From Ascidiella aspersa (taxonomy: Eukaryota), in the NCBI GenBank assembly GCA_963924565.1, contig OZ004613.1, forward strand, positions 24,800,001-24,864,000: a stretch of 64,000 nt of DNA, given 5' to 3'. Numbering within the stretch: the first letter of the stretch is position 1; the number at the start of each line of letters is the position of its first letter. Positions 1,890 to 38,620 of this stretch are shown one piece after another. Made by a program: the position numbers and the translations under genes. The notes beneath the pieces were generated by a model, which saw only the letters and a list, made by a program, of their open reading frames with translations, was not told where the DNA came from and did not search any database.

Positions 1890-4059
1890 GCGCAAACTAT
1901 AAAACTTCTTTAAGCTACAATCTACTTGAAAAAACACAATCCCAATCAACTGTTATTACGTAGTATAATGCATTGTTACAATCTGGCCAAGTTTTTCACT
2001 CATCCGTCAAAATGAAAGAATTACACTTTTAAAAACTAAAATAACAAAAACTTATTTTAGTTAAGTACAAACATTGATACCATCTTTTTTGTCATGATTT
2101 ATTAAGCTAATGCCTGCAATTAAGTTAGTATAAAAGTCAAGCAATAGCCCAATACAGCGGTTCCTAACCGGCGGGGAGGGGGGGGGGGGGGGTTCTCTAC
2201 TACATTATTTAACTTTTTTCAGTAATTTTTTGGTTTATTTCAGTTGGGCACCACTCCAACAGCTGTACAAACTCTGTTTTTTTGCCAACTTTCACATTAA
2301 AACTGCAAAAAAATTTCGTGTATATAACAGCCCGATTTAATTACATTTTTGCTAACTTATAGTTAAACGATAAAAGTAATCCCACTTTCGAACTATTTTT
2401 ATCCATGTTTGATAAATGATAACAGGCTAGCAACAGGGGAACTTTTTTGCGCGAATCTATAATGGCTTTGCAACATTTCCGTTGTATTGTGTGTCGTCAC
2501 ATCTTTTGAAAAACGATAACACAATGTTTAATTTTTGCGCTTGACATTTTTATTTGCGCTCGACATCATAGCCTTACAACTGTGGAGTATATGCTCTCAC
2601 AACACGTGTGTCAAAATAATCTCGATAAAAATCAAAGTGGAGAGCACGAGCAATTTGTTGTGAGCCCAATGCAAAAAGTCTCCTAATTTACAGTTTAGCA
2701 AATTTAACCAAACGAAACTTTAATTGTTTTCGCGCTTCGCGCAACCTACAATACACTTCAATGTGTCCAAGTTGTTTCAGTGATATTCAATTTAAATGCC
2801 GACCTGCTTTTTTTAGGGTGGCGCAAGACATAGGAAGATTACCAAAAAAGGCGCGGCTGATAAAAGGCGCGGCTGAAAAAAGGTCCGAAAACCGACCAGG
2901 CAAAGTAATTTCCAGCAAAACTCATATTATGCCAAATTGTCAATGTTATAATGATTTTACATTTAACTGAAAAACAGATTTCGAGTTTGTATGGATATAT
3001 TTAAATGCCGTTTTGGTGCCATGTCTCCCGCCTTGCCTACGATTTTAAATTATTCATATTTTTAGACAAAATTATTGATTTTAATTGCGTGTTGCGCAGT
3101 AATTTATTTTATGATCCTTCTTTTTGTTGTATTGGCCTTGAACGTCGTTTCCGACCGTTCTCCTGGTCATACGCCAGATTAAAACTTTGTTAATTAGTAA
3201 CCTGGGTCCTGGGTGCTAAGGTCTCTACAAGGTGGCGCGAACCCAGAATGCTTAGGAATCGCTGATGTAGATTTTACGTTATACTTAAAAACGACACATC
3301 TGTAAGAAACTCATTTATACCAATATGGTTTATTAAAGATGACGCAAAACAATCTGTAGAATGGCACATACAAGGTGATAAAATAATGTCGGCACCTTTC
3401 GGAAGCAGAAAGCCAAAGCCACAAGAAATCACGTCTTAAACTGCAAAGGAGGTAGGCAAAAGACAAAGATGGACTCGAATGTAACAGCGCTGATTCACAA
3501 ATCTAAATCATTAGACTTTTTTTGTCTCACAGGTCAACTTTGTGGTTGCAATGTCCACTTTGAAATCATTACCACGTCAAATTCGGGATGTACTACAGTA
3601 CGTGGTGGGTTCAATGAGCCTACAAGAATGCTCCAACCCTCATATCAACCTTAATCCATTGGTTAATCAAAATTTTTAATTATTCCCACCCCAATAATTG
3701 ATGACTCTTGTACTCTCATACATTTTTATCTTTTTTTTAAGGTATTGAGTCGAATGCCTTAGTTTGAAGTTATGTGTTTTATTTAAAATTTTATTATAAA
3801 TTTGAACTCTTTTATCTCAAGTTTTGGACTTAAAACGATTAGATTGTTGCATGAGGTTTTTTGGTATTTTTAGTTTAAAATTGCTTATTTAGACGACAAT
3901 TTTATTGGTTTAAAGTTTTATAATAATGATATATAAGTGGTTATAGGGGATGCCTTGCTTAATGACTTGGCTGACTCGGGCAATTTGATTTGACTTTGAC
4001 CAACCCGATTTAAAGCCTAAAGTCATCCTTAGGTAAACTGCTAAACCAACCAATGCCGT

Positions 4060-5850
4060 TAACTGTAGCATATTACTAAATCAACCCCTAATCGAACCTT
4101 TAACCCTAAATGAACTAATAATATTAAAAAACGAAAAACCTCAAACCACCTCTAGCTTAGCCCACAGTCTTAATCAATTTTAAATCTATAACTAAACCTG
4201 AACACTCCTAACCCAGCCACTGACAAAACCCTGACCAAAGCATGAACTATTCCTTTACCTACTCTAAAATAAATTTTCTCAACCTAAACAGTAATATATA
4301 GTCTACTTTATCTCACCATTTAATCTACCGTTAACCCGAGCAACTTCCTAAATCAAACATTTAGCCTATCCTTAATTGGATTACTCTATAAAACCCCAGC
4401 AAACTTTTAACCCTACCATTGCCTGAAATTTAACTGCCCCCCTAGCACAAACAGCTAACCTAAAAATAAACCGAAAACCCAACCAAATTCCTTATTGCAA
4501 ACCCTTATCTTAACCATATAGCTTAAATGGCTAAAAGTAACCCTACCTCAACCCGGCACCCATTGTTATCCCACCCCACCCCTTACTCTATCATTAAATA
4601 AATTCTGATCTTAATTACAAACTAATTTCTTATCCTATCCCTAACCTGAGCATTGACAACTCACCTAATTTTTAAACCCTAACCGTAAGCCTTACAATTA
4701 ACCTTAACTAAACCCGATAGCGAAATCCCTAACCTAATCATACACTAACTTAAATTTAGTAAATAATCTAATCATTTATCCTTAAATTTAACCCTTATGC
4801 AAAACCCTAAACTAACCTTAACTAAACCCAATAGCGAAACCCCCAATATGATAATAAACTCATGACCTTATCCCTAATGGAAAACCCTAACTAAACAGAT
4901 AGGAAACCCTTAACCTAATAATTATGCCATAATCTTAACCCTTAAGCAAAACTCTAAACTAACCTTAAATAAACCCGATAGCAAAAGCCCTAACCTAACC
5001 CTAGTGCAAAACCCTAAACTAACCCTAACTAAACCCGATAGCAAAAGCCCTAACCTAACCCTTGTGCAAAAGCCCTAACCTAACCCTTGTGCAAAACCCT
5101 AAACTAACCCTAACTAAACCCGATAGCAAAAGCCCTAACATAACCCTTGTGCAAAACCCTAAACTAACCCTAACTAAACCCGATAGCAAAAGCCCTAACC
5201 TAACCCTTGTGCAAAACCCTAAACCAACCCTAACTAAACCCGATAGCAAAAGCCCTAACCTAATAGTCAACCTCTAACCTAACCTTATAAAAACCCTAAA
5301 CCTACCCTTAAACAAATCTGATAGCGAAACCCTAACCTAAACCTTATGAAGACCCTAAACTAACCCCCTAACCTAATAATTAACCCCTAATCTAACCATA
5401 ATAAAAATCCTAAACTAACCTTAAATAAACCCGGTAGCGAAACCCCTAACTTAACACTTAACCCCTTACCTACACCCCTAACCTAATAATTAATCCCTTA
5501 CCTAATCCTTACGAAAACCCTAAACTAAACCTAACTAAACCCCTGAGCGTAACCCCTAACCTAATAATAACCCCCTAACATACCCCCCTAACCTAACCCT
5601 TATGAAAACCCTAAACTAACCCTAACTAAACCCCTGAGCGTAACCCCTAACCTAATAATAAACCCCTAACATACCCCCTAACCTAACCCTTATGAAAACC
5701 CTAAACTAACCCTAACTAAACCCCTGAGCGTAACCCCTAACCTAATAATAAACCCCTAACATACCCCCTAACCTAACCCCCTAACCTAACCCTTATGAAA
5801 ACCCTAAACTAACCCTAACTAAACCCCTGAGCGCCCCTAACCTAGTCCTA
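4060..5850 (+). repeat. CCCTAA-rich minisatellite (includes a 60-bp unit at ~4960-5270)
   Basis: Unit aacctaacccttgtgcaaaaccctaaactaaccctaactaaacccgatagcaaaagccct; strong A/C skew. Confidence 0.9.
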
Positions 5851-8376
5851 AAACTAAACTTTATTCACCAAATTGATATAGTAACCATGCAATTGCAACG
5901 GCCACTTACTGACAAACAGCCCCAACTCCACCACTCACCACAGTCGACATTGCGTGACAGTTAAAGCTACGAATGTAATAAACCTGCCGCAGCACCAAAC
6001 CCCAAACATCCACTTGCCGGCCCCTCTCCAGATTCCACAGCACGTCGAACGGATCAGCTACCTGACGAATGGCATGGTAACAAGGCGTCGGCATTGCATC
6101 TTTGGGAAATAGTCTGACAAAGCTCTTCGGCAAACAAAGAAGCAACATTTCCGGCGGAAGCGACATATCTGGCGAACAGAGCAGCAAGACGATGGAACAA
6201 ATCTTGAGGGTTTAAGCAAAATATCTCGTTGAACAGCTTACTGGCAAACAGCATGGCAAAATGCCAAATGGTGCAGTGACTTGGAAAACGGAATCACGAC
6301 ATGGCAAATTTAAATTAAGCATTTGTTGTTTTTGGAAAATGCCAAATGTTATATGATAGCTATAAGGTAAATGACAACAAGTTGCAGGGCGACGGAGTCG
6401 GAGTCGGGCTTGGGACTCCAGTAAAACTATGTATGGCAAGCCCCAAGGCCACAAACTGTAATTGTACAGGTGAAAAAAAAAGATACTGGAATATTTTTCA
6501 ACCAAGTTTTGTAGGTTGATTATAGATACGCTGTTTTAGACACGTAACGCTATTTTAGACACGTGCCGGACGCGGTGTCCGATGGATTTGATAAATTTGG
6601 ATAAAGTCGGACAGGAATTGTTTTGTTCGACTCCGCAGTCCTGACAAGTTGTTAAATGATAAAGCTATTTTAAAAAACAGTAAAAATGGCGAAGTTCTAA
6701 CAAGTAATTTCAAAACGACTGAAACTCAAGGTATTTGCAAAACTCGCTTTTTTTTGAGTTTTTTTCATAAAACATGACCTTGTCATTCCACAAAGAAATG
6801 TAATAAAATTTTGAAGTAAGTCGCAGTTAGGTAAATAAACACGAAAGACGAACCAAATGGCAAGCAAATTTTTCTGCGTGTAAACGTTGAGCTATAGCAC
6901 AATTTTAAGAAAATATATATTCAATTAAAATATTTATTTTAATGTTGAATCTGCAAATTTATTGCCGGAAATTTGTTTTCGGTCATTTGGTGATTTAGGA
7001 GTGCATGCTTTTTTAATAATTGTTTTTGATTTGGTAATATGTGGATGATTTTTAGGGGTTTAGGGATCTGCGCCTTTTGGATCTTTCAATTGGGGAAAAA
7101 CCTAATATTTAGTATTATTATTACGTTTGGGATCGTGACCAAGGTTTAAGTCTTTATTTTGGAAAGTCGTACATTTAGTTTTATTAAAAATTTACGTATA
7201 ATGGCCTCGTAGGCCTTTTGATATAGTTGGCAAACATATTTTTTGGGGAAAGGTTAGGCGAATTTTCTGGTGGTGAAGTTGCAGGGCTTAGTGGTGATTT
7301 GGTATAGAGGCTGTTAACACTTGTTAAAAAAATGATTTTTGGAGATAAAGAACATTTTTGTGGCATGGCAAGCATAGGATTGGGTTAGGGGAGGAAATAA
7401 TATGGAAAATATAATTTAATCTTTGAGAACATAAATTGGGAAATTTTATTGCAGGATTTACGGGCTATTTATATTAATAATAATTTAAATATTTAAAAGA
7501 CATTTATTAGAGTATGGATCCTTAATGTGACACCTGAGCAGGTTTTTGAAGATTTTTGGAATAAATGTAGGGTTTTTGGCGGAGGGTGAAAACCAAATAT
7601 TGAAATATACACTACATTATAATTTGGATAGTATGAGACAGGATTGAATTGGTGAGGAATATATTGTGGGATATAAATTTGTCAGTTTATTGTGGTAAGA
7701 AAATCAGAATTAACACAGAAAATCGCTGTCCATTTGATTTGTCGCTCTGTAAATTTGATAAAAAAGTTCAATTCTGCTTCGCTCGTTGCCAAAATCCAAA
7801 ATTTTGTTTTTCTTTCGCCATTTTCCTATATGGTAAAAATAATTTGTCCGACATTACAAAAATTTACTTCCATGTTATTCTGTAAGTCAATTTACCAAGC
7901 AGCTATCATATGTTAAAATGCTAGTTTACTATGGCGTCATTCCATTAGTCAAGATACTGTGTCATTCGAAATGTCACCATGTTGTTTGCCAATTAGCAGT
8001 CTACTCGACATTTTACTCGAATCCTAAAGATTCTGTTCCATTCGCCATGTTGCTGCTTTGCTCGCCAGGTGAAGTCGCTCCCACTGGATTTGTTGCTTCT
8101 GTATTTGCCAATGTAGCTTTGCCCCCAAAGATGCAATACCGATCGCCTTGTAACCATGACAAACGACAAGCAGCTATCCGTTCGATATGCTGTGAAAAAA
8201 GGAAAGGTGCCTTGACAAGCAGACGTTCGAGATCCAGTGCCCGCAGATCTAAAACAAACGCAGCCCTAACGCCACGCAATATCTTCCATGGTTCGTGGCA
8301 AAGTTAGGACTGCTCGCCAGTTAATGACCGCTTTAATCGCACGATTACTGTCAATTTAATGAACAAAGTCTAGTTT
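5851..8376 (-). ncRNA. Candidate long-hairpin RNA, inner stem, copy A
   Basis: Arms 5851-6360 and 7896-8376 are diverged inverted repeats with G-U-biased mismatches on the minus strand; putative intron 7895-6360; 1-2 nt indels argue against coding. Confidence 0.55.
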
Positions 8377-8389
8377 CTGGGTTGGGTGA

Positions 8390-10150
8390 CCCTAACCTAA
8401 CACCCCCTCCCCATATCCCAAGCCCTAACCCTAAACCAACCCCTAATCAAACCCCGAGACTAATCCCCAACTTAACCCTAAAACAAGCCCCTAACCTAAC
8501 TTAACCTAAACCCTAACCCAACCTTTAACCCAACCCCTAACCCAACCCCTAACCCAACCCCTAACCCACCCCCTAACCCACCCCTAACCCACCCCCTAAC
8601 CCACCCCTAACCCACCCCCTAACCAAACCCTTTACCCAACCTATAATACAACCCCTAAACAAACTTCTAACCCACCCCTAACCAACCCTTCACCCAACCC
8701 ATAGTGCAACCCCTAACCCTCCCTCTAACCCACCCCTAATCCTAGTCTAAACCTAACCCATAATACAACCCCTAACCCAACTTTTAACCCACCCCTAATC
8801 CTAGTCTAAACCTAACCCATAATACAACCCCTAACCCTACTTGTAACCCACCCCTAATCCTAGTCTAAACCTAACCCATAATAGAACCCCCAAGCCCACT
8901 TGTAACCCACCCCTAATCCTAGTCTAAACCTAACCCATAATACAACCCCTAACCCACTTGTAACCCACCCCTAATCCTAGTCTAAACCTAACCCATAATA
9001 GAACCCCCAACCCCACTTGTAACCCACCCCTAATCCTAGTCTAAACCTAACCCATAATACAACCCCTAACCAACTTCTAACCCACCCCTAATCCTAGTCT
9101 AAACCTAACCCATAATAGAACCCCCAACCCCACTTGTAACCCACCCCTAATCCTAGTCTAAACCTAACCCATAATACAACCCCTAACCCCACTTGTAACC
9201 CACCCCTAATCCTAGACTAAACCTAACCCATAATACAACCCCTAACCCAACTTCTAACCCACCCCCAATCCTAGTCTAAACCTAACCCATAATACAACCC
9301 CTAACCCCACTTGTAACCCACCCATAATCCTAGTCTAAACCTAACCCATAATAGAACCCTTAACCCAACTTCTAACCCACACTTAACCCTAGTCTGAACG
9401 AACCCGTAATACAACTCCTAACCCCACTTGTAACCCACCCCTAATCCTAGTTATAACCTAACCCATTTTACAACCCCTAACCCAACTTCTAACCCACAAT
9501 TAATCCTAGTCTAAACGAACCCGTAATACAACCCCTAACCCCACTTCTATCTTACCCCTAATCCTAGTTTTAACCTGACCCATTTTGCAACCCCTAACCC
9601 AACTTCTAACCCACTATTAATAAAACCTAACCCATAACACAAATCCCTAACTTAATTTTACCCGTAATCTTTAACACAAACACAAACTATATTTTAACCT
9701 TAACCCTTAACACAAACCCTAAATAAATTTTAATCCGTAAAACAAACTCAATTTAATTTAAACCTAACCCACACTACAACCCCCAACCCAACTTCTGACC
9801 CACACTTAAAAAAACCTAACCCATAACACAAACCCCTAACTAAATGTTTACCTTGTAACCTTTAACATTAACCCTAACTAAATTTTACCTCTAACCCTTA
9901 ACACAAACCCTAAATAAATTTTAATTTTTAAAACACAAACCCTAATTAAATTTAATTTAATCCTCAACACAAACCCTAACAAAATTTAAACCTTGTAACC
10001 TTTAACACAAACCCTAACTAAATTTTAACCTTGTAACCTTTAACACAAAGCTTAACTAAATTTTAACCCTAACCTTTAACACATACTTTAAATCACTTTT
10101 TATGAACTTGAAACCCTAACAAATTTTTACCCCACAATATTTCAAACCCA
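8390..10150 (+). repeat. CCCTAA-rich minisatellite (~59-bp unit at ~8740-9600)
   Basis: Unit aatcctagtctaaacctaacccataatacaacccctaaccccacttgtaacccacccct. Confidence 0.9.
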
Positions 10151-10969
10151 ATCCAAATATAACCTCTAAAATTGACAATAAATTTCTGAGCTAAAGTCCA
10201 AGGTTTAGTGGTTGGTTTAGCAATTTGTATAGGGATGCTTATTGTTAATTAGCAAACCCAATGCCCAATTCAACCCATATATTTCAACCCTTATACCAGC
10301 CCACACTAAACAAAGTTCCCACATAACCACTAAACCATATCAAAATGTACTTCTAACTCGTCCCTCCACTTCGAGCACTTCCATGGATCCCTTGGGGTAC
10401 GTGGGCTAGTTTTAGGGCCCCAAGAAGGCCTACTCAATTTTTTAGGTTGTTCAATTTTTAAATGGACAATTTTATTTTAAAAAGAGTTTAATTAAAACAA
10501 ACGTTTTGGGCCTTCTCCTTATAATGTATTTAGACTTAATTTAGGTTTGACATTTGTTGGACTGAGCCTACACCCTTCGTTACCCCCCATAATTCCGGAC
10601 TAAGCTTTGGAAACCCCGAATGCCAACCCCAGTAGCACACAGTTTACCTTATCTCTCAAGTTAAAGTACGCCTTGAACCCACAGATATAGCAATCCATTT
10701 GAGGCTGGATCCCCTGAAGCTGGATGAAAGGTTGCGAACGAAAGGCAACGCTGCTATTTCTCTAATGATTAAGTCTGTTTATCAGCACTGTTACATTAGA
10801 AGGCACCTTTGTCTTTGTGTACTTCCGATTACAGGCCAAAAGTGAAGTCTTGTCGGGGTTGCCTTTCTTATTCCCGACACAGCCTGCAAACATAGTCAGA
10901 ATTACTAGCGTGTTTGCTAAAACATTTTTTGGGAATAATGATTTAAAATGTTCGACAAAATCGTTAACC

Positions 10970-10975
10970 TTTATT
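10970..10975 (-). promoter_or_regulatory. Candidate polyadenylation signal AATAAA for gene copy A
   Basis: Minus-strand AATAAA ~210 nt after the stop codon; also present in copy B near 50833. Confidence 0.4.
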
Positions 10976-11184
10976 GTGCATTGAAGTCGTGAAATTGTGC
11001 ATACGTTACTAGAGGAAACTTTTTGTTTGTTCAATATATGACACTTCCGTCAAGCCTTAGGGGCCCGCCCGCAATTGTGTTGTGTTGGCCTTGGCTTGTT
11101 TGTTTAATGAACGACATACACCCAGTACACTATACAGCATTGGCTGACATAATACTTTATCATACTTTTTGTAGTTTTTACCAT

Positions 11185-14100
11185 TTAGATAGTTCTGCGA
11201 GGCGAACAGCAGCCGAAGCAGCACACCATCTTTCGAAAGAATGAAAGCGTTCTTCTTATAGGTCCTTTCTGTAAAAAAGTTAACAAGTAAATAAACGATG
11301 CCTACCTTTTATAAACAAATAAGTATTACAAACTAAAAAATTTTAAATTACTCATATAAAAGGCAAATTATTTTTGAAATAACTCAAACATAAAACATAA
11401 CTAAATTCTCAGAACTTAAAATTATTAAATTTAAAAAAATAATTGAAGTCCCTAACAATTTTCAGTTACGACCCAACAAATTGCTTTATAACGTTAAGTC
11501 CCAAAACAAGAATACGTAAGAAGTGCTCGCTCGTAACTGGTGTGCAAATATGCAACTATATACATATGTAGAGGTACTATAATCGAAAAAATGTTAAAAC
11601 TTAGATTTATTTGAAAAACTAGACCTCTGCCTGGACAGCCAACGTAAGGTGTAAATTTGAAATGACCAATGTTGAACTACAATTATCTAATTTGAAAAAC
11701 GGAAATAAAAGCAATCAAACAATCGCTGCCTGAGATAACAAAACAATGCCAAATAAATAAAATACGCCTGGCGAAATTAGGCAAAACACAAATAAATAAA
11801 TCAATATGATACGAGTTAAACAGATTTCAAACGAACATAACGAAAGAACGTTTTCAAAAATAGTTTTTGACAGATTTCATATGTGCATACTTTATTCTTT
11901 CTGGTAGAGGAAAGTGTTTTCTCAAATTGAAAATATACCATAAAACCCTACTCTCCTATACAAAATGTTTCTTCGTTTACCCATGATTACTGTTTTTATA
12001 TGAAAGTCTTTATGGCATTTGAATATCACGGTAACACAAGCTTAAAAATACAGGATTATTGCGAATGAATTTTTAGTGTTATAAATGTATGGGTAAGTGG
12101 GTTATAGTATAGATAGAGTATACCTTTTGCTTTTTTTGTGTGCCGGAATCGGCTGCTGTGGAGTTGTCGACGTAGACCGTTGCCGCACTGGCTTCGTTTG
12201 AAGCGGCAACGGCCACAGAATGGTTGGCGGCTTGAATTGATGCCGCATTAATGAAGGGGCTGCTCGGCCTCGGTATTATGGCCTGTTGTAGAGCAGCCCC
12301 TACGGTGAATGTAGCCAAATCTTGAAGTTCTTCCTCAAACTGTTAAAAAAGCACGTTAAACCTTAGCGGGATACCTGTGTTGAACAGATGTCTCTTAACC
12401 TGTATGCTACATTAGATTTAGAAAGTCGTTTTAGCGTAGTTCAAGGTCGATGGTTGCAGATATAAAAGCATATCCATTAATAAGGTAACGAAATGTTCGA
12501 GATAACTTCAAAGTTACTTACTGCTTCCTCGTCTGTCTCGGAGCCTTGTGGCGTTTCCGTCCCACTCGATGTTGTTTGCTACAAAGTATAACACAACGTT
12601 AAACAGGACAAAATGAATTCGTCTAGCATCTATTTTGATAGTTGCATATATGAAAGCGTATTTATCAATAGAAACAAGAAATACGTAGGCTAAGAAGTGC
12701 TCGCTTGTAACTGGTGTGCAAATATGCAACTATATGTATATAGAGGTACTATAATCGAAAAAATGATAAATCTTAAATTTATTTGAAAAACTAAACCTCG
12801 TATAACCCGCCTGGACAGCCAACGTAAGGTGTAAATTTTAATTGACCCATGTTGGACTACAATTATCTAATTTGAAAAACGGAAATAAAGGCCTTTCCAA
12901 CGAAAAACGAACATAGTTAAAAAACGTTTTCAAAAATAGTGTTTGACAGATTTCATATGTGCATACTTTATTCTTTCTGGTAGAGGAAAGTGTTTTCTCA
13001 AATTGACAATATACCATAAAACCCTAGTCTCCTATACAAAATGTTTCTTCGTTTACCCTTGATTACTGTTTTTATATGAAAGTCTTTATGGCATTTGAAT
13101 ATCACGGTAACACAAGCGTAAAAATACAGGATTATTGCGAATGAATTTATAGTGTTATAAATGCATGGGTAAGTGGGTTATAGTATAGAGTATACTTTTT
13201 GCTTTTTTTGTGAGCCGGAATCGGCTGCTGCGGAGTTGTCGACGTAGACCGTTGCCGCACTGGCTTCGTTTGAAGCGGCAACGGCCACTGAATGGTTGGC
13301 GGCTTGAATTGATGCCGCATTAATGAAGGGGATGCTCGGCCTCGGTATTATGGCCTGTTGTAGAGCAGCCCCTACGGTGAATGTAGCCAAATCTTGAAGT
13401 TCTTCCTCAAACTGTTAAAAAAGCACGTTAAACCTTAGCGGGATACCTGTGTTGAACAGATGTCTCTTAACCTGTATGCTACATTAGATTTAGAAAGTCG
13501 TTTTAGCGTAGTTCAAGGTCGATGGTTGCAGACATGAAAGCATATCCATTAATAGGTAACGAAATGTTCGAGATAACTTCAAAGTTACTTACTGCTTCCT
13601 CGTCTGTCTCGGAGCCTAGTGGCGTTTCCGTCCCACTCGATGTTGTTTGCTACAAAGTACAACACAACGTTAAACAGGACAAAATAAATTCCTCTAGCAT
13701 CTATTTTTCAGGTTTGCATTTCTTTGAACATAAAATTGGATTGTCGTTTTAGTCACTGCGTCACGTGAGCCATCCATACATCTATCGTTTGTAGAATTTT
13801 GCCAGAGTATTTTTATTGGCCACAATACAAAGATATTTTTGTTGGGTATGAAAAATATAAAAGTAACCAAGAAATTCAAAATTTTAATATAAAAACATCG
13901 TCATCATATTAAGTTATCAATTTACATGAATTAAGACTTAAATCGTTAAATTAAAATATTTATGTCAAACCATAAAGTCTGCTATTGGAGTTGTTTTATG
14001 AGTAAAAATAGTTTTCTATGAATACTGTTGTATTTCGGTTTCATGTGTTTCACTGTGGGGTTGTTTATTTTTTGTTAAATTGAAGTGTACAACATTCATA

Positions 14101-17100: not shown

Positions 17101-20100
17101 TTTTGACCTGTGGTATTTGAGTGAGCTTTAAACCAAAATGTTTGAGAGGTACTGTTGTAGAAAGTTTGTTACTGTTTGATGGTTGCATATATGAAAGCGT
17201 ATTTATTAATAGAAAAATAAGTGTTCGAGAAAATTTTCAAGTTACTTACTGCCTCATCTTCTTCAGAGCCTTCCGTCGTTTCATTGTTGGGCGGGATTGT
17301 TTGCTACAAGGTATAGCACTATGTTAGACAGGCCAAAATGACATTTGTAGCATCAATTTTCTGTAATTACTTTTTAGTTTCCGGTAGCGCAAACTGGTTT
17401 GCATTTCTTTGAGACATAAAATCAAATTGTCGTTTTAGTCACAGCGTCGCATAAGTTACAAAGACATCTCACTGTCTTTGTGGAATTTTGCCAGAGTATT
17501 TTTATTGGCGACAAGCTAAAGATGTTTTTGTTGGGTACGAAAAATATAAAATCAACGAAAAAATTCAAAATTTGATTATAAAAACATTGTCATCCAAATT
17601 GATCAATTTGCATGAACTAAGACTAAAATCGTTAAATTTTATTTATATCAAACAATAAAGTCTGCTAATAAAGTTGTTTTATTGGTAAAAATATATTTCT
17701 ATAAAGATTTTGGTGTTGTTTGTTTTTTTGGTAAATTCAAGTGTACAATATACATAGCATAGCAATTAACACACGTTTATGGCATGTAATAACCAAAATA
17801 TAAGATGAAGAAGAATTGGAATCCTTTTTTTTTCTTCACTTAAATTTACACAAATTTTTTGATTTATAATATTAAGTGTAAATTTATATTTCAATTGAAA
17901 TTGTTTGAGGCAAACCGAAATAAAGATTTTGAAAAATAGGCGTTTAAACGTTCTCGCATAAATATTTTTAAACCGGGTGGTTTAAGTGGGTCAAACCATA
18001 ATAAAACATAATATTTGACATTGCGTTTTTTAGTACATTTAAAAATAAGTTAGAATAATGATTCAAAAAATCTTCGACAAAAATATATTTCTTTCGTTTA
18101 CCCATATATACTGTTTTTTATAAGAGGTTCTTTACGACATTTATATTTTAACAGCTATATATCAGGGTAACATAAGCTTTACAATAAACGACTATTGCTA
18201 ATAATTTATGGTGTTTTAAAAGTATGGGTAATTGAGTTATAGTATAGAGTATACCTTCGGGTGCTGTGATGATGGTGCGCAATGGTCGACGTCGACCGGC
18301 GCCTCTGCAATTTCTTCCAAAGCGGCAAAGGCCGCGGGGTGGTCGACGTCGACCGGCGCCGCCCTTATCTCATCCAAAGCGGCAACTGCCGCGGAGTTGT
18401 CGGCGGCTGCAACTGATGCCGCCTCATCATAGGGGCTGCTCGGCCTCTGTATTGTGCGGGCCTCGCACAAGGTAGCCCCTACAATGAAGGCGGCCAACTG
18501 GTCGCATGCCGCTTCCAATTCTTCCTCATTCTGTTAAAAATGCACTTATTAAACCTTTGCGGGACACGTGTATAGAAAGGTGGCTCTTAACCTGTGTGCT
18601 ACATTAGATTCAGAAGAAAATATAAGACTTTCATAGTTAAAATTAGCTGTTATCAATTCACAACTGTCTAAAAACTGTGGTATCAGTAAAAGCATTTGTG
18701 TTTTGCAATAAAAATCTCTCAGTTTGCAATAAAAAACCCTGAACCTGCGAATTCACAGATCAAATTTTAAGAAGCTCCGCCCTATACACTGTTCGCTTGT
18801 TACAATGCTTACTTTTATACCTGCCTCACACTTTAAAAGTATTGTGTATGGTAAAGTTACTTTTACATCACAGAAATGTAGTATACGTCCTAGCCGGTAG
18901 CAACTATTAGTTAGGCTTGCCGATAGTTTACTCGGTTTGACATCGAAAAATAAGCCATGCTTATAATTAGCTGTTAGTTGTGTTTGAACTATACTTTTTA
19001 CAACCAGGTTTTGATAACTTTTTTTAGCATTATCTGACATGGCTGTGTGTTAAAAATGTACTTTATTTGTGCCAGGGCTGTTGAGTCGTTTAAAAATGAA
19101 CCCCGCAGTCCACTCCCGAGTCCAGAGTCCCGCTAAAATATGCGATTATCATCAAGTTCCGAACCTGGATTCGACCCTAAAGTCCATATTCCACCCATTT
19201 ACGCATCTGAAATAAGAATGATATTGTCTAATCCACTCATATAATATAATTCATTCATAAAAAATTCATGGTTTGAAAATATTCGACCATAAATTAGTCT
19301 ATATCTTTACAGTCAACAGTTTGCGGCCTTATTAGTTTCAAAATTCGGCACGGCGCATGCGCACGTAAGACTCGGGACTCGCGTAAGACTCGGGACTCCA
19401 GCAAAATAATCCGACTCCGTCGAGTTCCGTTTTACCAGTCCAGAGTCGAACTCCGGCTTTTAACCCTGGTTTGTGCATGGGGTTGATCCAACTACTAACT
19501 TTAGGTTAATAAATGATTTAAAGTGTGAATCTCATTTACGTATACGTACAGTAAAACATGTTAACGAAAAGCAAACCCCAAAATATCGTTATTTTTATGA
19601 CGCTTTCCATATAGCCGCCATATAGTTGTTGGGACCCTTGGTATTACTCAAATATTTATAAAAGTTTTGTTCTTAATTTGTTAACGTTATGTAAACACTC
19701 TGCAGGTAAAGAAAAAATAAAACTTTAATCAAAAGGTAATATATGCTTGTTCCAGCAAAATTAACTACAATGCGTCGGACACAGTTTGCAATTTACGCAT
19801 ACCAAATACAACGGTAAAGTTCTACCAAGATAGCCTAATCAAACCAAATAAGCTATCTTTTTGCTTTCGAGGGGTACGTGGCGTACTGAGCACTGAGCAC
19901 AGATAAAAAATGTACATTGCTTGATATATTGACGTTTATTAAGTTGTGGGGCGCCTAGACTCAAAAGTTACGATTAAAATACGCAAAACTTCGTAAAAAA
20001 CCTTACAATGTTTTCAGTGTTAACAAACAGTCGGTATTTCATTCATATTTTAAAGACGGAATACTTTCGACCGAAAACATTTTCCGTGTTAGTATTTAAG

Positions 20101-23100
20101 ACAGGCTAAAATTCCAATTTCGCAGGTTCATGACTAGATTGCTTTCGCGGTATGTTGCCCAGATTTGCTCTAAACACTTCAATAGGGTAATATTAAAATT
20201 AGGATAGCAGCAATTTAAATACATTTGACCGAAAATGTTAATTCTCATTGTTGCAAGAATTATGAAAAATATATCTCAATATTGTAGCGTTAACTGCACT
20301 GTTATGATTAAGAATTAAACCTTACGTATTCTGGCCAGATATTCAAGGTTTCCATCTCAATGACGTCAAAGGTACCTTCTTGCATCTAAGGATGGATTGG
20401 CCGTATAAAAAACAAATATTTAGTTTTTGTAGTGAATATTAATTATATATATACTTGTTTTATTGAAACGGGAAAACTGTCCCTTTTTACTCATTTTTTG
20501 CACATGGGAACTAATTCCATGAAATTTCAAATTAAAACTAGTGCTGAAAAGTTGTTAGACATCAGATCGTATCTTATGTTTTATTGCACATTATTTAGTT
20601 TAGGCCATGATTGAATACATTGTTCTAACAGCGTGCCGCTACGTCGAGGATCACTGCGTATTTGTTTTTTTTATATTGTGGTCTTATTGATATGGTAAAA
20701 ACAATATTCTAATATACACATTTTGCACTGTTATAGTTACGAATGAAACCTTACGTGTTCTGGCCAGGTGTAGAACATCACTACATCAGCAGTTGAGCCT
20801 TCTTGCTTCTAAAAATGGAAGGCGACACAAAAATAACAAGAAATATTGATTGCAAGACTTAAAGTAAACAAAGAAGAAGCGACAGTTAAATTACTTAAGT
20901 TTTCTTCGTATTTCTTCGTATTGCTTCAATTTTGGTCAAATAAGGAAAAATCTTGCTAATAACTAATCGCATCAAATCTATAATCATATAGAACTACTTC
21001 AGTCGGCGACCCAACCAAATCAAACGGTGACCCAATTGTGGGTCGCGACCCATAGGTTGTGAAACAAACATTTGTGCATCGCATTGTTAAAAACTATTTT
21101 TACTGCGTGCTAACTACGCCGTAGACATCACCGCGCATTTGGCTTCTTTATGTTGTTATCTTATTAATATGATATTATCATTCCGATTTTAGATATGCTA
21201 TCTTTATAAGTAGGTAGCGGAACAGTGGCTTTAATCAGCAGGCGAGATTAGCTTTCATGGTTAACTTAATAACTTACCCCCTGCTGCTTCGAGTTTGCTG
21301 CGGACAGCGTTAACGGGGACCGCGCTCGTTGCTAGAAAGAAATACAAAACATTAGTAGGTACTACATCTTGTTTGTAACATATTAGGGTATACTTTTTAG
21401 TGTAAATTTGAATTGATTTTTCATTATTATATTTACAATTACCAAAAGGGCGTTATAAAATATATATAATTATATTTGACCTGTTATGGTAGTATTTTAA
21501 GCGCGGAAAATATCACACAACAAACAATATACCATTTATAATTTTATGAAACATGCTAAAAAATATTCAAAAAATAAAACTTTACAATAAACAAAATATA
21601 TAGTTATGTAAAGGTTAGCAAAATATACACAGAGCCAATATATAGTCCAAGCTTAAACTTTAATTTACAACAAAGAATTAGTTTGTTAGATCATTATTTC
21701 GGGCTTAGGATTTTAAACAAAACAACACGAATGTCTTTAATAGTAAAATGGACTCCAGCTATATGACATAAATTTGAATAACATCATCGTCAGGAAAAAG
21801 CATATTTCGGAATAACATTAAAATGGGACTAATGTGTAGAAATTCAAATAAGATCTAAATTATAACAAGACATGAATGACCAGAATGAGGTCTAACTAAC
21901 CTTTTATCTAGCCCCAAGCCCCACCCACAACCTTAAACCCTAAATATTTCAACTCCAAATTTAACTTGAACTTCACCAATTAACCCAGTGGTTCGCAACC
22001 TTTTTTGGCACACTAGAGAAATTATAAATAGTTCGCGGCACCCTTCCTAGTTTTTTTACTAAGTGGTTAACTGTAACGTTACAACAACGAGATTAATAGC
22101 AAACTTTTACTGTGCAACATGGTTGAAAAAACGTTTCTGATCTTTGGCACTTTTATCGTACACAAATAAAAAGTTGTATCAAAAATCTTACCAATAGAGC
22201 AATAACTGGAATACGAAATAATTTGAAACATCTAGCCCTAGTGGCACTCTTGGGCGTTAAAAATGGCCTAAAGTGCCACGGCCCCTGGTTAAGAACCAAT
22301 ACTGCATTAAGCCTAACAAGGGCAAACAAACAGCGGCGCAGTTTGATGTGTTTTATAGGCTATTTAGGTCGCATTTGGAGCAGTTTGGGACGTATTCCGT
22401 CTTCAATATAACAAATACGAATATTTAAGTATCAAGAATTTAAAAACAATGCGCGACTCATATTATTTAAGTATATTCAACTTGTGTGCAGTGGTTAAGT
22501 AAACCTGAACGATCTGTTTAAAAGATTTCATCTAAAAAAATTTAGTTGCATATTTGTGAACTGCATCGAACGATGTCTCCGGTTTAGGTTATACAGAAAA
22601 GCATGCAAGACTTGATGCCTACAACTTTTAAGGAATTAATGTTATTAAGGTGTTTGCCGTCACAAATAACTTTTCTAATTTCTAAGGCCAAAAAAGTTTG
22701 AGTGCCACTGGTTTTCATAACTAATATTGGCATAGAGATTAAGTTGGGATCAAGTCCTACTGTCCAGAAACAGTTTATGCGTATCAAACAAAATAGTTAA
22801 CATATATATTTGCTTTACTGAAATATAACCTAGCTAGCTCCTAGCTCCGCAGGCATTTATAACTTGTGCAGCCAGAAAGATAATCAAGAGACGAATGTAG
22901 TTTTAATTTAACAACATTCGTGTGTAGAGCCATTTTTTTACCAACCAAGTCTAGTTAAGTAATTGATGTGAATAATTTTTGTATAAAATCAATCGTAAAT
23001 TTAAAAGTCATGAGTTCCATATTTGTCTTTTTACACAAATATACCATATCAAAATGTCTTCTTTGGCTCTATGCATTGCATATATGTAATATTTACGTAT

Positions 23101-24084: not shown

Positions 24085-24605
24085 CTCTTAAACTGCCTTC
24101 AAAATGNNNNNNNNNNNNNNNNNNNNNNNNNNNNNNNNNNNNNNNNNNNNNNNNNNNNNNNNNNNNNNNNNNNNNNNNNNNNNNNNNNNNNNNNNNNNNN
24201 NNNNNNNNNNNNNNNNNNNNNNNNNNNNNNNNNNNNNNNNNNNNNNNNNNNNNNNNNNNNNNNNNNNNNNNNNNNNNNNNNNNNNNNNNNNNNNNNNNNN
24301 NNNNNNNNNNNNNNNNNNNNNNNNNNNNNNNNNNNNNNNNNNNNNNNNNNNNNNNNNNNNNNNNNNNNNNNNNNCTAAGTCTAACCATAACTAACATTAA
24401 CTCTAACCTAAAATGTGCACACATTTTGAAGGCATTTTTAGGGCATTTCAAAAATGTGCGCACATTGTTAAAAAAGTGCGCCGATATTTGAAAGCAGTTC
24501 AAAATGTGCGCACAATTGTTAAAAAAGTGCGCACATTTTTGAAGGCAGTCAAAAATAAGCGCACATTGTTGAAGGAATGTGCGCACTTTTTTGAAGGCAG
24601 TTTAA
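24085..24605. repeat. Palindromic AAATGTGCGCACATTT tandem repeat element spanning the gap
   Basis: Inverted ends AAACTGCCTTCAAAA / TTTTGAAGGCAGTTT. Confidence 0.6.
24107..24373. other. Assembly gap (N run)
   Basis: Run of n characters. Confidence 1.
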
Positions 24606-25899: not shown

Positions 25900-26480
25900 T
25901 GTATTCCACATACCACAATAATACCTACATGGCAAACAATATTGGAACATAATAATACCTACATGACAACAATATTTAAAGCAGAATAATCTATAATACC
26001 ATAGTATTAAATCCAACGACATAGTAATATTCAATACATAATGAGTTAAATCGCCTAACCAAGACCCAAATCTGTCGGAATACGTCATAAATTAATCAGA
26101 ATAAGGCCTAAATGGCCTAAATAACGCCCGAATCTGCAGGTAGAGGGTATGGGACGATCAGAGGCCGATGCCGTCAGGACGTCGCTATTTTTGGCACTGC
26201 TTGGGTTATTGGGGGTAATGATAGGGGTTAGAAATTAAGTTAGGGTTACAATTTTTTTTTTTTAAGTTAGTGCTGTAATTAAAGGTAAGGCTTGGGGTTG
26301 GGTAAAATGTTGTATAGGCCTGATTCTGTCCATTTAGATCTTATTCCAGCGAATTTAGAACTTATTGTGATTTGGACGTTATTACCACTATAGTATAGTC
26401 CTATTTTGGTCTTATTCCGAATTGTGTTTTATTCTGACGTTGATGTGGTTCTTATATAGGTCTTATGAGTTTTTCCTACT
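25900..26480. mobile_element. Second copy of the fold-back-like family
   Basis: Collinear with 30880-31690 but without the expanded array. Confidence 0.6.
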
Positions 26481-26925: not shown

Positions 26926-28224
26926 CAGGGGTGGGCAATTATTTTTAACCGCGGGCCACATGAGAAACTTAAAATGTTGTCGCGGGCCGGGTCAAAAAAG
27001 AGGATCTCAAATGCACGTAATATGACGTCATACTACGACGCTAAAAAATAAATTAGCTAACGAACTTGTTATTACGTTAGGAGTAGTGAGCAAATGTTCA
27101 ATTTATGTCGAATTTAAAACAAAGGAAAAAAATGTGACTAGGCCTATAGGCTATTTCAGTGTTTCTTAACCTTTTTTACTTGGGCGCACCTTTTACTTTG
27201 GCGCACCTACATTTTTTTATTATATAGGTTTTATATATAGTTGCATATCTTTAAAGGGACTCCAGCCTTTAAAACTAAAAACCTTATTTTGTCCATTTAA
27301 GTCTTGTCCCGATTAACTTTGGACTTAGTTCGTGTTTAGGTCTTATTTAGACTATTTTAGATCTTATTCCGTCGTGGTTATTACTGCGAGTATGGCGTTA
27401 TTATGTCGGTGATCTCAATAGGTCTACTATGGTAGCCGCGGCGCACCTGGCAGCCTTCTGCGCCGCGGCGCACCGGTTGAGAAACGCTGGGCTATTTGTT
27501 AAAACGAAAATTTTAATTTAGACATAGAGGGGTACGTCAAGCACTGAGCACAGATAAAAAATGTACATTGCTTGAAATATTGGCGTTTATCAAGTTGTGG
27601 GTCGAGTTGATTAAGGTTAAATACGTAAAAATTTCCCACAAAAAACTTACAATGTTTTTTGGCTTTTGAGGCTTAAGTTACCGATGTGTTATACTTTGGT
27701 GCAATGGCCATATTGAAAAGAAGGCATAAATCGGGAGAAATACACAATATGGCATTAACTAAATTTGGCTGACAAACGTGAATTTGTATGTTTCAGAGTT
27801 TAGAAAACGGCATGTATTTCGTCCATATTTTAAAGTCGGAATACATTCGAAAGCAGCGCAATATATCTATATATATTAGGGTTAAGTTTGTTAAACTTTT
27901 GTTGGAGAAAGTGCCACAGTGCAGAGGACGCTTTTAATCTGTAAATATGGGCAAATAATTTGTGGAAGATACGAAAAAGACAGAAAAAAAAAAAAGATTC
28001 GCGCGAAGCGCGAAAAAAAAATCATTTTAATCTTTAAAACAGGCTTAAAATAGAGTTTGGATCCGTCCCTAGAAATGGTGTTAACGATACAACACAACTA
28101 AACATGTAGAAATTCCCCCTTGTTTTCGCTCGGCTTATGTATTTTAAGAAAACTAAGCCGCGGGCCGGATTAAACTGCCTGGCGGGCCGGATCCGGCCCG
28201 CGGGCCTTATGTTGCCCAGGTCTG
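26926..28224. mobile_element. hAT non-autonomous element
   Basis: TIR CAGGGGTGGGCAA / TTGCCCAGGTCTG; subterminal GCGGGCCG motifs; TSD CTTTAAGT. Confidence 0.9.
27157..27489. mobile_element. Nested hAT MITE
   Basis: TIR CAGTGTTTCTTAACC / GGTTGAGAAACGCTG; TSD GGCTATTT. Confidence 0.9.
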
Positions 28225-28926: not shown

Positions 28927-29519
28927 CTTTTAATACATTTGCACAAACTAAATTAAAGTAAAATAAGTCCTACAAATCGTATGCTCGTACCACAAATAAA
29001 TGGGAATTCTTCACAAACAGTGAAAGATAGACACACACATACGTGCACAACAACTGTCATCTATAGCCTTCCCAAAGCTGCTTTCTTATCAACGACCACA
29101 GCCCAGGTATTATAGTAGGCCTACACCGAAGCCATAGTAGACCAAACAGTTTCTTATAAACAATTTGCAATTTAGACGTACCAAGTGAAATAGTTGACGT
29201 TAACTGTCTTTAAAGCCAAAGTTTTTTGTCGATTTTAGTCGAAAAAGCCTAACTGCGCCAACTTTTAATCAATTATTATACTGTAAGGTCAACAAGATAC
29301 ACACAAGGCATATATAGTTTAAGGAAACAACACCCGTTTACTATGCCACTGTTTTCTGAACCAAGTGTATTTAGGTATATAAAACAAACGAAAATTTGGT
29401 ATTTAATAAGCCTTAAATAAAATAGTCATAAGTTCCATGTTTGTACGATTTTTTGAGACGAATTTACCCACTATAATGTATTCTATGCATTAAAATAGTA
29501 AGTAAATTTTAATTACGTT

Positions 29520-29990
29520 TCAGCTATGAGGTAACAATGGCTTCATAAAGTGCAAAAAAATCAATTAATAATAGAAGTTAACAAACCTGTTACCAAATCT
29601 CGTTTCCAACGAGATTAGTTAAAACAGTGAATTATTATAAGGCTATACAGTTATCTAATGTTTTAGTTCATTTTATATGTAATTATTTCTATTGATTAAA
29701 ATAGACGAGTGATATTTTTGGTAATATTCATTATATTCCTAAACCGAAAAATGTTGAGAAAACTAGTTACAGTCAATTGCCAGGTCTTACCTTGGATCGT
29801 TGCATTTTTTGAATGATGTTCGGAATAAAAATAACTCCCAAATATTTCAAAATTTGCTTTAAATTGTTGCAATTTATATTCGTATATATTTTTGCAAATA
29901 AAATGCGAATACCATGTCAAAAAATATGTACATAGATATCAAATCATCTATTGTTACATAACAATGCACATTGATGACGAATTTACGTGA
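29520..29990 (-). pseudogene. Orphan 5' fragment of the gene family (exon 1 MQRSK plus upstream and intron sequence)
   Basis: ATGCAACGATCCAAG|gtaag at 29805-29791; flanks resemble 23100-23780; exon 2 is absent. Confidence 0.6.
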
Positions 29991-30879
29991 ACTTAGTTTA
30001 AAAAAATTGTGCATATAGTTTTTCGTTTAATTTTCTTCCTAGAAATGAATTTGTCACTAAATTTAGTCAGATTATGCAAATTGTAAAACATAAGAATAGG
30101 AATAAATTGGAATTTTTTTATAACACAACAACAGAGATTTTAAATTACTTGTTTATAGCACTGCGAAGTACATAAAATAAATCAGAAACCAGGAATTCGG
30201 ATAAATAAATACATGTTTTATTTATATCACGTTGGTGACCTGTACCGACTAGTTTCAGGTTGTTTTATACGCTAGCTTTGGTTCGAAATACACTTGGGTA
30301 TTCACAGTATAATAGGCTACCAGGCTGAAGAGCTATTATAAAAGGCCCAACATGCAGTTACTTACCGATAGTCATCCAATAAGGATAAACATATTGCCAC
30401 ATTCCTTCCAAAAACCACGTTTCGATTTGTGACTGTTTGTTGTAAACGTTTTGTAACTAAGAAGTGTGTTGAAAACCAATAACGCGGCAGCAAATTTCGA
30501 TGCAACGTGTTAATTGCCCACGCCGCTGCCTTGATTGTTAGCCCTGTGGATAATCAGTAGCTTAATCTTCGCGCCACGAACTGCTACAATTTTGTCTTTC
30601 GCACTTTACTTTAATTAATTATTTAAGTTCAATCTCATATTATAGAGATTGATAAGTAGAATGCTACAGAAAAATTGTTGTATTTCAAATAAAGCGTATA
30701 TAGGCATACTCACAAGCTGAGGTCGACAAGTTTATTGAGTTTCAGTTTTCTAATTCATTGAATTAGAGCAAAATGCGGCTAATTGTAATTCTAATCTAAT
30801 TTATGAATTGTCTGTGTGCTCTAATTCTAGTTCTAATCTAATTCGGATTTTTCCAAAACTGCTACTTTGTCCAACGACA

Positions 30880-31690
30880 TTTTTAGGGGAACACACAATA
30901 AGACCTAAAAAGCAACAATACCAAAAGCACCAAAATCTATAAAACCATAGTATTAAGACCAACGGCATAATAAAGCCAAATACGCAGTAATTTCTAGTAC
31001 AGCATAATATCAAAATCGTCTGAATAAGACCTAAATATGTCGGAATAAGGTCTAAATTCATCGGAATAAGGCCTAAATTCATCGGAATAAAGACTAAATT
31101 CATTGAAATCAGTCCTAAATTCATAGGAATAATGCCCAAATTCATCGGAATAAGACCCAAATTCATCGGAATAAGGCCTAAATTCATCGGAATAAGTCCT
31201 AAATTATTGGGAATAAGGCCTAAATGCATCGGAAAAAGGCCTAAATGGACAAAATAACCCCCGAACCTGTAGGTAAAAAGCATGGGACGATCGGGGGCCA
31301 TCGGACTGGCATCGGCCCTTTTGGTGACTACGTTTGGACGCCCTAGTCTGACCGGCGCCGTCAGGGCGCCGCTGTTTTGGCACCGGATTTTTGGTCCTGT
31401 TTGGGATTATTGGTGGGGAATGGGTTAGATTAGAAAATGGGTTAGTGTTGAAATTATTAGGGGAGTTAGTGATGTACTTAGGGGTGGGGTTTGGGGTTGG
31501 TTAAAGTGTTGTTTAGGCCTGATTCTGACTTTTTAGGTCTTATTCCGAAGGATTTAAGACTTATTCAGATTTAGACGGTACTAGTACCATTAGGTATAAG
31601 TCCTATTTTGGCCTTATTCCCAATTGTGTTTTATTCTGACGTTGGTGTTGTTCTTGTCTCGGTGTTATATCTGGAGTCCATTTTTAGTCA
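30880..31690. mobile_element. Fold-back/MITE-like interspersed repeat with a 21-bp internal tandem array
   Basis: Unit GGAATAAGGCCTAAATTCATC at ~31020-31250; complementary AGGTCTTATTCC motifs in the right half; related copies at ~25900-26480, ~41570-41960 and ~21750-21960. Confidence 0.7.
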
Positions 31691-32270: not shown

Positions 32271-32886
32271 CAGGGGTCGGCAACCTTTTTCTAAGCGCGG
32301 GCCAAAACCAAACTCAGAAAGGTCTTTGCGGGCCGCACAAAATGCTAATTGGGAATTGTTGTATTAAAATGTTAGAACAACTGTAAATCAGGCGGGGCTC
32401 GGATATTTTTTGCACTTAAAAACGTGTTTAATTACATTTACAGAGGCAGTTAAGTGTTGACGCATCTAGCTCAGTGTCAGTGCTTGTTTTTCGCATTTTA
32501 AGTCAAAGCGCATCTATCGAGCGAGGCGAGCGAGTCTATTTTGGGGGTATACCGATATTTCTTTCAATTTCTTGGAAGTTTGTATTACATTAACGAAATT
32601 AAAAAATAAAATAATGTTTAAACATATATGTCCAACATTTTTTAATACGTTTTCCGTTTTTGCTCGACGCACTTGGCAGCCTTCCAAGACGCACCGGTAA
32701 AAAATCGCTGATATAGTTGAAAACGTAGCATAAAAACGTAAACAAACGGAACCCAGAATAAACTTTCGCGCGAAGCGCGAACATTTTTCACCATTACTCA
32801 ATAGTTAAGTTAAAATAGTCAAACAGTTTGTGAAATAGACTCGTGTCTAAGATTTACATCGGCGCGCAGTAGGTTGCCGTCCTCTG
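32271..32886. mobile_element. hAT MITE (duplicated at 34368-34983), nested in an older hAT at ~32124-33224
   Basis: TIR CAGGGGTCGGCAACC / GGTTGCCGTCCTCTG; GTTTAAA on both flanks. Confidence 0.8.
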
Positions 32887-35800: not shown

Positions 35801-36463
35801 GTTCTTATTTTTTTGGATTAGCGTGCTTATATTGTGTTTTAGCAGATGGTAACCCTGCCTATAAAGCAAGCGTAACTAAAGCGCAATGATTTAAAATACT
35901 ATATATTTGCAAGAAAACGGCATAAAAAACTAAACAAACAGTGATATCTACGCCGTAGTCGGCACGCAGTAAAAAACAGTGTATTCACAATGCAATAAAC
36001 GAAATATTGTGCAATAAAACATTAGTTAGGATCTGATATCTAACAATTTTTTTGTAAGCAAGCCTTTCAATTTGAAATATCAAGGAATAAATTACCATAT
36101 TTGTGCGAAAACGGAGTAAAAAGGGACTGTTGTCCAGTTCCAATAAAAAAAGTGAATGATCAATATTCACTACAAAAAATAAATATTTGTTGTTTTTTAT
36201 TAGGCCATACCATTTTTAGATGCAAGAAGGCTCATACGACCCAAACGAGGATACGATCTCGCATAGCTGGCCAGAACACGTAAGGTTTAATTCGTAACTA
36301 TAATAATGCACTTAACGCTAGAATATTGGGATATTTTTATCCATTTTAATAAGATAACAACATAAAGAAACTAAATACGCAGTAATATGATTGATATCTA
36401 CGATTTAGTTGGCACACAGCAAAAAAACGATGTATTGAACCATGCCTTAAACGACATATTGTG
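32271..36463 (+). repeat. 2097-bp tandem direct duplication
   Basis: 32271-34367 is nearly identical to 34368-36463; ORF track entries repeat at +2097. Confidence 0.95.
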
Positions 36464-38050: not shown

Positions 38051-38371
38051 GTACATTCTATACAATAACCCCTATCCATCACGTAACATTTCTCTAAAAT
38101 AAAAAATGCGTTTATTTGGTTAAATTGGCAAAAATTTGTATTTATGAGGAGGCGTGGCGCCTTAGGCTAGGGACAACACGCTTTTTTCATCGAGGACCAG
38201 ATGATTGCAAGTCGTGACCATCGGCGACCTGCTAACTCTTAGAATTCACCACCGTGGGCTGATAATAACATTTGTTGGACGTTTATTAACTTAATTACCG
38301 TTAGCAAAGAAAAGAATTACGCAAAAAGAAAAACTGTAGTGAGCTTAATAAATTGTCATAAGGTTTAAAGT

Positions 38372-38513
38372 TGAAACATATGTACACACATATATGTGTG
38401 CTTACAACTGAGATCTAGCCTTTCTGAAGCTGCTTTTCTAGCCCTTCTGAAGCAGCTTCAGAAAGGCTAGATCTCAGTTGTAAGCACACATATATGTGTG
38501 TACATATGTTTCA
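38372..38513. repeat. Perfect 64-bp inverted repeat with a 14-nt spacer
   Basis: Arms 38372-38435 and 38450-38513. Confidence 0.95.
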
Positions 38514-38620
38514 TTGTATTATGATATGATACTGGCGATCCCCTTCGTTATGAAGCTGCTTGTACTAACAGATTGAGCAAGCATTGACGTATGGTTGTTT
38601 CTCGACTCGTTCCCTTCTGA

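Follow-up and report, generated by a model that had tools for sequence, protein, structure and literature searches.

The subject of this report is a nested fold-back at the 3' end of a gene of Ascidiella aspersa (Eukaryota), located in a 64,000-nucleotide stretch of DNA (GenBank assembly GCA_963924565.1, contig OZ004613.1, forward-strand positions 24,800,001 to 24,864,000), which is termed the window below and is numbered from its first letter. The DNA of the window is AT-rich and intron-rich, and the gene, which lies on the minus strand and is built of repeated phase-0 exons, starts with an ATG exon near 23590 and reaches down to 11182. Gene and fold-back are contained in a duplicated block, which extends from 3298 to at least 23898 (copy A) and from 42844 to at least 63388 (copy B). 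The fold-back opens within a spliced exon of the 3' untranslated region (UTR) and represents a partly expressed, real and apparently selected RNA structure, far larger than the long-range UTR duplexes of which we found descriptions. In the direction of transcription, copy A comprises the following features:

11182-11268, minus strand: last coding exon, bounded by two splice joints and read from its translation
10884-11181, minus strand: GT-AG intron of 298 nt in the 3' UTR, supported by a joint and by a depth of 0.75-2 over 10895-11149; contains an AATAAA at 10975-10970
10130-10883, minus strand: first part of the 3' UTR exon, as far as the RNA mapping reaches, with a depth of 14-57 and the first mate on the plus strand as for the coding exons
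10761-10893, minus strand: 5' side of outer arm O1 as read in the RNA, at 50582-50756 in copy B; belongs to the exon from 10883 on
10343-10760, minus strand: spacer without pairing that holds two fragments of dispersed repeats (at about 10380-10417 and 10523-10562), where many contigs have loose ends
10190-10342, minus strand: outer arm O2+O3, 5' side, within a 289-nt run identical in A and B
8390-10185, minus strand: satellite 2, units of 59 and 37 bp, G/U-rich in the RNA
7890-8387, minus strand: inner stem, 5' arm (copy B, 47515-48012), overlapping 669 nt (7717-8385) in which A and B do not differ
6341-7889, minus strand: central loop, no pairing above shuffles, opposite skew at 6950-7700, six minus-strand AATAAA
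5840-6340, minus strand: inner stem, 3' arm (copy B, 45454-45954)
4075-5839, minus strand: satellite 1, units of 60, 90 and 110 bp (114 bp in copy B)
3927-4069, minus strand: outer arm O2+O3, 3' side, placed by pairing score and duplex energy
3386-3515, minus strand: outer arm O1, 3' side (copy B, 42932-43107)
3329-3334, minus strand: candidate distal AATAAA and putative poly(A) signal (the copy B counterpart ends at 42880)

The RNA data comprise one raw RNA sequencing run, about 6% of which was read, with 326 reads mapped on 10130-12660, and three contig sets alongside. GT-AG joints connect 12339-12522 (3 reads), 11268-12124 (10 reads) and 10882-11181 (14 reads with 12 starts). The translation places the stop codon at 11187-11185, 3 nt ahead of the splice donor, and the 298-nt intron opens 3 nt past this codon. 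In the direction of the coding exons, read depth amounts to 14-57 over 10130-10894, 0.75-2 in the intron and 6-38 in the coding-exon bins, the peak at 10385-10469 being partly due to repeat-derived reads; depth in the opposite direction is near 0 over the outer arm. The spliced joint and the exon-level depth put the 5' outer arm within the mature 3' UTR of the coding messenger RNA (mRNA). In the spliced RNA O1 starts about 4 nt after the stop codon, and its alignment reaches into the acceptor region of the UTR exon.

A preliminary description of the locus had offered a long structured 3' UTR, a read-through product or an operon-like downstream cistron. The first proposal finds support, since the outer arm opens a cis-spliced minus-strand exon and the differences between A and B preserve minus-strand pairing. 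Read-through past a poly(A) site and an operon-like cistron find none: the number of junction reads (14) agrees with the depth at which the exon starts (13.7), and neither a start nor an end site was called. This agreement leaves little room for a trans-spliced cistron; the acceptor at 10883 joins the coding exon in cis. Spliced-leader reads had been envisaged near 10960, where no loose end is found among the entries listed (119 further entries exist). The outer arm does lie near the AATAAA assigned to the gene, about 80 nt from 10975-10970, but that AATAAA is inside the spliced intron and was rejected as the main poly(A) signal. Over 10130-12660 there is no A-to-G excess in the RNA (T>C at 12 places, A>G at 10, C>T at 11, G>A at 12), in a test with a depth of 14-25 on the arm, with 92 further entries beyond those listed and with a possible loss of heavily edited reads. 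The RNA changes listed in O1 are also present in contigs.

The arms were located by inverted-strand BLAST and pairing dot-plots in both copies. A second nested arm pair around the satellites and the inner stem, as described before, is indeed present in A and B, but it consists of two blocks instead of continuous arms of about 670 nt. Continuous outer arms were rejected, as the roughly 400 nt between the blocks pair no better than shuffles (3516-3926 against 10343-10760: -124.8 vs -104 +/- 10 in A, -98 vs -95 in B, 6 shuffles each). Nor does the arm of copy B begin at 42770: positions 42770-42930 lie outside any arm.

O1 scores 70 in copy A (shuffle maximum 35) and 114 in copy B (shuffle maximum 29) in local pairing alignments; its duplex in A reaches -113.9 kcal/mol, compared with -48.8 +/- 5.9 for 20 shuffles. 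It is longer in copy B, as copy A is devoid of 65 nt at 3516. For O2+O3 of copy A the score is 49 (shuffle maximum 39) and the duplex energy -107.5 kcal/mol (-60.3 +/- 7.6 for 20 shuffles). The inner stem shows 73% Watson-Crick pairs across 485 columns. Overall, the three stems span about 130-175, 140 and 500 bp. The minus-strand duplex is stronger than the plus-strand duplex in all six stems tested (inner stem, -571 vs -401), and the longest helices measure 28 bp on the minus strand vs 15 on the plus strand. Local hairpins within O2+O3 do not exceed expectation (z of -0.46 and -0.93), Rfam covariance models give no match on 2500-12000 at E up to 1, and the inner-arm pattern has no match in metagenomes.

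G-U pairs were counted with strand-neutral scoring. The inner stem holds 62 G-U pairs on the minus strand and 22 on the plus strand (p=1.5e-5). The minus-strand lean attributed earlier to the outermost blocks is not significant in the single blocks (8:2 and 14:6), but emerges when these are taken together, with 22:8 in A (p=0.016) and 22:10 in B (p=0.05), and the block at 4020-4055 is mixed as stated there, with 2:4 over 4020-4069. Among 15 control inverted pairs from the window, no minus-strand G-U lean reaches p<0.05, and one pair leans to the plus strand (p=0.016).

Of 734 aligned stem columns, 19 are different in the two copies. Fifteen of these differences exchange a Watson-Crick pair and a minus-strand G-U pair and none involves a plus-strand G-U pair (15:0, p=6e-5); the other four are two exchanges of mismatch and Watson-Crick pair and two of mismatch and mismatch. 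Transversions occur at 2 of 1468 stem sites vs 155 of 11160 other sites (p=1.8e-6), a tenfold deficit, and transitions in the stems are not depleted (p=0.41); the background rate leaves out the poorly aligned edges 3516-3520, 6546-6569 and 20012-20199. In the repeated units of the gene body, polarised changes show no strand bias (28 vs 32 of 128 singletons), so that biased mutation of one strand does not explain the G-U lean. The 15:0 swaps, the deficit of transversions and the lack of mutational bias in the gene body together make the pairing look selected in RNA, that is, on the transcribed minus strand, as far as the sequences of two copies can tell. Fourteen of the 15 swaps sit on the 3', far arms, and because these swaps keep pairs, they also indicate indirectly that the 3' arms are transcribed.

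Between the stems, the RNA would be rich in one hexamer. TTAGGG is found 46 times on the minus strand of satellite 1 and 49 times on that of satellite 2, compared with 2-3 in shuffles (3 for satellite 2). The satellites are homologous and have the same orientation (score 341, shuffle maximum 80). Pairing of one satellite with the other is no better than shuffles in all three windows, and a pairing of satellite and central loop was tried and rejected.

The sequence suggests that the transcript extends below 10130 to the AATAAA at 3334-3329. This signal lies about 50 nt past the far arm, the match between A and B ends 20-35 nt further downstream, and an exon unspliced up to this point would comprise 7574 nt in A and 7891 nt in B. 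We tentatively favour the view that this tail of about 7.6 kb, starting with the fold-back in the spliced UTR exon, folds into a selected, double-stranded compaction rod. The first 120-170 nt of the UTR would pair with the block that ends about 50 nt before the distal AATAAA, and the rod would bring the stop codon into the vicinity of the presumed poly(A) site, with the TTAGGG-rich satellites staying unpaired as an internal loop of 1.8 kb plus 1.8 kb. Compaction, together with the binding of double-stranded RNA-binding proteins of the Staufen type, could shield the very long UTR from nonsense-mediated decay and would also set the stability or storage of the mRNA.

Several observations weigh against the compaction rod. 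Twelve other minus-strand AATAAA occur between 10883 and 3334, and the RNA view, from one run and 326 reads, covers the UTR exon down to 10130. A-to-G changes are not in excess, though a long duplex might be edited. The 5' arms differ at 4 of 734 columns vs 15 of 734 on the 3' arms (p=1.8e-5), a conservation which exceeds what pairing alone needs and which compaction leaves unexplained. A weak central alignment (6833-6934/7658-7756), left out of the stem counts, does not follow the pattern, its five A/B differences being one minus-strand G-U, one plus-strand G-U and three others. Copy A is without about 45 bp of stem O1 and has two private pair-breaking changes there. Finally, an inverted duplication, from which the fold-back may derive (see below), leaves the satellites that point the same way unexplained.

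The conserved 5' arms suggest a different use of the same duplex, which is the main alternative although we consider it rather unlikely: Dicer would cut the stems, chiefly the inner one of 500 bp, into endogenous small interfering RNAs (siRNAs), and guides from the 5' arms would silence paralogs or the gene itself. Near-invariant 5' arms, facing 3' arms that take G-U changes, are expected if one side is read as sequence, but invariant tracts could also reflect gene conversion or recent common ancestry. Helices of 26-28 bp and the adjoining inverted paralog D (see below) fit this scheme, and according to PMC10317233 fly hairpin RNAs lie among their target paralogs, with transcription across opposed copies as the proposed origin. 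However, none of the window's coding exons is matched by the arms, so that no target emerges, and the precursor RNA reaches the abundance of the coding exons. The stems might instead act in the pre-mRNA, by looping out further 3' UTR introns, formed by the satellites and the central loop, or by hiding internal poly(A) signals, in which case the mature UTR would be much shorter. One 3' UTR intron is demonstrated, six AATAAA cluster in the central loop, and the minus strand has donor-like sites at 9888, 9851 and 9555 and acceptor-like sites at 8189, 4890 and 3440, although these are consensus matches only. The satellites contain 82 and 85 UAGG words, and intronic hnRNP A/B sites reportedly aid the splicing of long introns. 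Yet 10130-10883 is exonic at full depth, and no splice-out appears among the joints or loose ends listed; we regard such a role in the pre-mRNA as improbable.

To an equally small degree, we reckon with arms that have no function, as nested ends of a foldback-type transposon or as the axis of an old inverted duplication, which by chance came to be part of the UTR, with a G-U lean that stems from strand-biased mutation. The homologous satellites of one orientation look like one array split by an insertion (341 vs 80), a 10-nt direct repeat surrounds the inner unit (though it is a common satellite word), the window contains small inverted-repeat elements whose G/T-rich segments are similar, and the divergence of the arms equals that of D and the gene. 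Selection on the pairing is argued by the unbiased mutations of the gene body (28:32), by the tenfold depletion of transversions in the stems and by the 0 of 15 control inverted pairs with a significant minus-strand lean. Furthermore, the 5' arm of O1 is found on one contig per run (two runs, at least 85% likeness) and thus is no young dispersed repeat. Even if wrong on function, the relic explanation may be right about the origin.

A neighbouring paralog bears on the probable origin of the fold-back:

33800-38070, plus strand: inverted, 3'-degenerate paralog of the gene (D), which faces copy B across the fold-back

Intron and exon matches of D and the gene are 72-80% alike, and the fold-back arms show a similar likeness (73-80%). 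The midpoints of five inverted matches between D and gene B (45245-48450) bracket the fold-back axis (46733-46845). Neither the last coding exon nor its introns could be traced after D. The arrangement would be explained by a tail-to-tail inverted gene duplication, after which one transcript was extended through the axis; that the O1 alignment reaches into the acceptor region would be in keeping with a far arm left over from the beginning of D's UTR exon. Candidate target-site duplications of a foldback transposon are an outer 5-nt word and the inner 10-nt word common in the satellite. The satellites in the same orientation and this 10-nt direct repeat flanking the inner unit suggest that the unit split one satellite array.

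D itself holds tandem 60-nt microexons and Ala/Ser-rich exons, with a stop near 37940 in its last recognisable exon. A 2.1 kb tandem duplication at 32271-36465 (99.6% identity) is recent or an assembly artefact.

The comparison of the copies relies on a second complete unit:

42844-63388, minus strand: copy B of fold-back and gene, 96-98% identical to A in unique DNA; its UTR exon would begin at 50746

Substitutions between A and B amount to 2.1-4.4% in six unique segments. The notion of a co-duplicated cassette holds insofar as gene and fold-back are both in a block that the assembly contains twice; it is no evidence of functional coupling, because an N gap (24107-24374) lies between the copies and other samples have one B-like arm sequence. 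Over 10555-10979 there is one contig in each of two contig sets. RNA reads carry the B letter at 10771 (20/20), 10780 (20/20) and 10802 (12/12), and both contig sets agree; at 10582 and 10615 the A letter is found in one contig set. Alleles of one locus or a private duplicate fit these data better than fixed paralogs. The left flanks (201-2158 and 38165-41318) share six collinear pieces that are 70-82% alike, far less than the 96-98% of the block. This counts against simple allelism and points to paralogous clusters of greater age, the edge at 3298/42844 being one of crossover or conversion.

Long imperfect duplexes of the kind predicted here are formed in human mRNA 3' UTRs by inverted Alu pairs. 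Here, however, O1 is not high-copy in the runs mapped, the pairing is apparently selected and there is no editing excess. Modular arms are a feature of foldback transposons (Drosophila FB, sea urchin TU, a Ciona element), whose long terminal inverted repeats enclose tandem repeats; in the A. aspersa locus the arrays are not inverted, the arms are 73-80% alike, a clear target-site duplication is missing and there is no sign of dispersed O1 copies. One precedent for the proposed mechanism is engineered: the 3' UTR foldback constructs of PMC2689704, in which 26 nt of pairing bring the poly(A) tail back to the stop codon, suppress nonsense-mediated decay and made decay substrates more stable in human cells. 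As predicted here, a sequence just after the stop pairs with one just before the poly(A) signal, but those foldbacks are artificial 26-nt inserts, whereas the present one is natural and has 120-170 bp, a span of about 7.5 kb, nested stems and satellite loops. Natural Staufen1-bound duplexes spanning the UTR go along with lower degradation (PMC10164587), with a mean long span of 252 nt and a median pairing of 20 nt, compared with a predicted 1.5-7.5 kb and 130-500 bp. The Drosophila hairpin RNAs hp-pncr009/825-Oak, Nmy and Tmy (PMC10317233) are, as predicted for the present locus, long imperfect inverted repeats in one transcript with opposed gene-family neighbours; their transcripts are non-coding and independent, and both siRNAs and targets have been demonstrated, in contrast to the present repeat in the UTR of a coding gene that is intact. 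In invertebrates, giant microRNA hairpins are also well paired at the kilobase scale (PMC12553114), but no conserved microRNA was identified in the arms, and Rfam has no match in 2500-12000. A literature search retrieved no paper on such a locus, most subscription papers being outside its coverage.

Natural long-range UTR duplexes mostly span hundreds of bases. As a natural case over several kilobases with a clear signal of selection on the RNA strand, the compaction rod, if true, would provide a direct test of whole-UTR folding as a way in which animals keep very long UTRs stable, and would show how the axis of an inverted duplication turns into a structured exon. A more far-reaching possibility, which we regard as unlikely, is a clamp of the whole UTR, in which the 150 nt at either end of the 7.6 kb terminal exon tie the stop codon to the poly(A) tail, the two telomere-like UUAGGG single strands, each of kilobase length, serve as a scaffold for proteins or G-quadruplexes, and the 500-bp stem is able to feed Dicer. 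Such a transcript, derived from the axis of a tail-to-tail duplication, would be mRNA, architectural RNA and siRNA source in one.

One 92-amino-acid exon of the host gene gave no match among longer proteins, and Pfam assigned no family to two exons and four open reading frames of the arms. The top score for the gene's protein in the ESM Atlas was 0.76, under lead level, and sequences of the PDB yielded no hit in one search and two chance hits (E 0.5-0.7) in another. A metagenome search with the exon protein returned one locus with a 27-residue match, which was judged a chance match. The repeated exons (12124-12339, 18255-18530 and their repeats, minus strand; 2+2 in copy A, 3+3 in copy B) open with an acidic amphipathic segment reminiscent of PKA-anchoring (AKAP) helices, and a cluster of cysteines is found at the C-terminus; neither feature has a database match. 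The first exon and its flanks recur in a third copy at 29294-29994 (minus strand, 67-81% alike), and the downstream exons were not found there.

Further transcripts map to the 3' part of the gene. Antisense RNA reads cover 11150-11234 and 11915-12169 with a depth of up to 8, and those at 11186-11206 carry variant letters that are also present in one contig set. Six RNA reads join 12578 back to 12124, which most simply reflects splicing between tandem exon units and could also come from a circular RNA.

Elsewhere in the window, small elements at 21745-21960, 26000-26470, 27280-27420 and 30990-31690 have inverted ends with 21-bp sub-repeats and a G/T-rich segment on one strand, and do not lean to minus-strand G-U pairs. 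Beside a perfect 64-bp inverted repeat (38372-38513) lies an alanine transfer RNA-like gene (38620-38696, plus strand) with the anticodon GGC, which we take to be unusual for a eukaryote and which possibly belongs to a short interspersed element.

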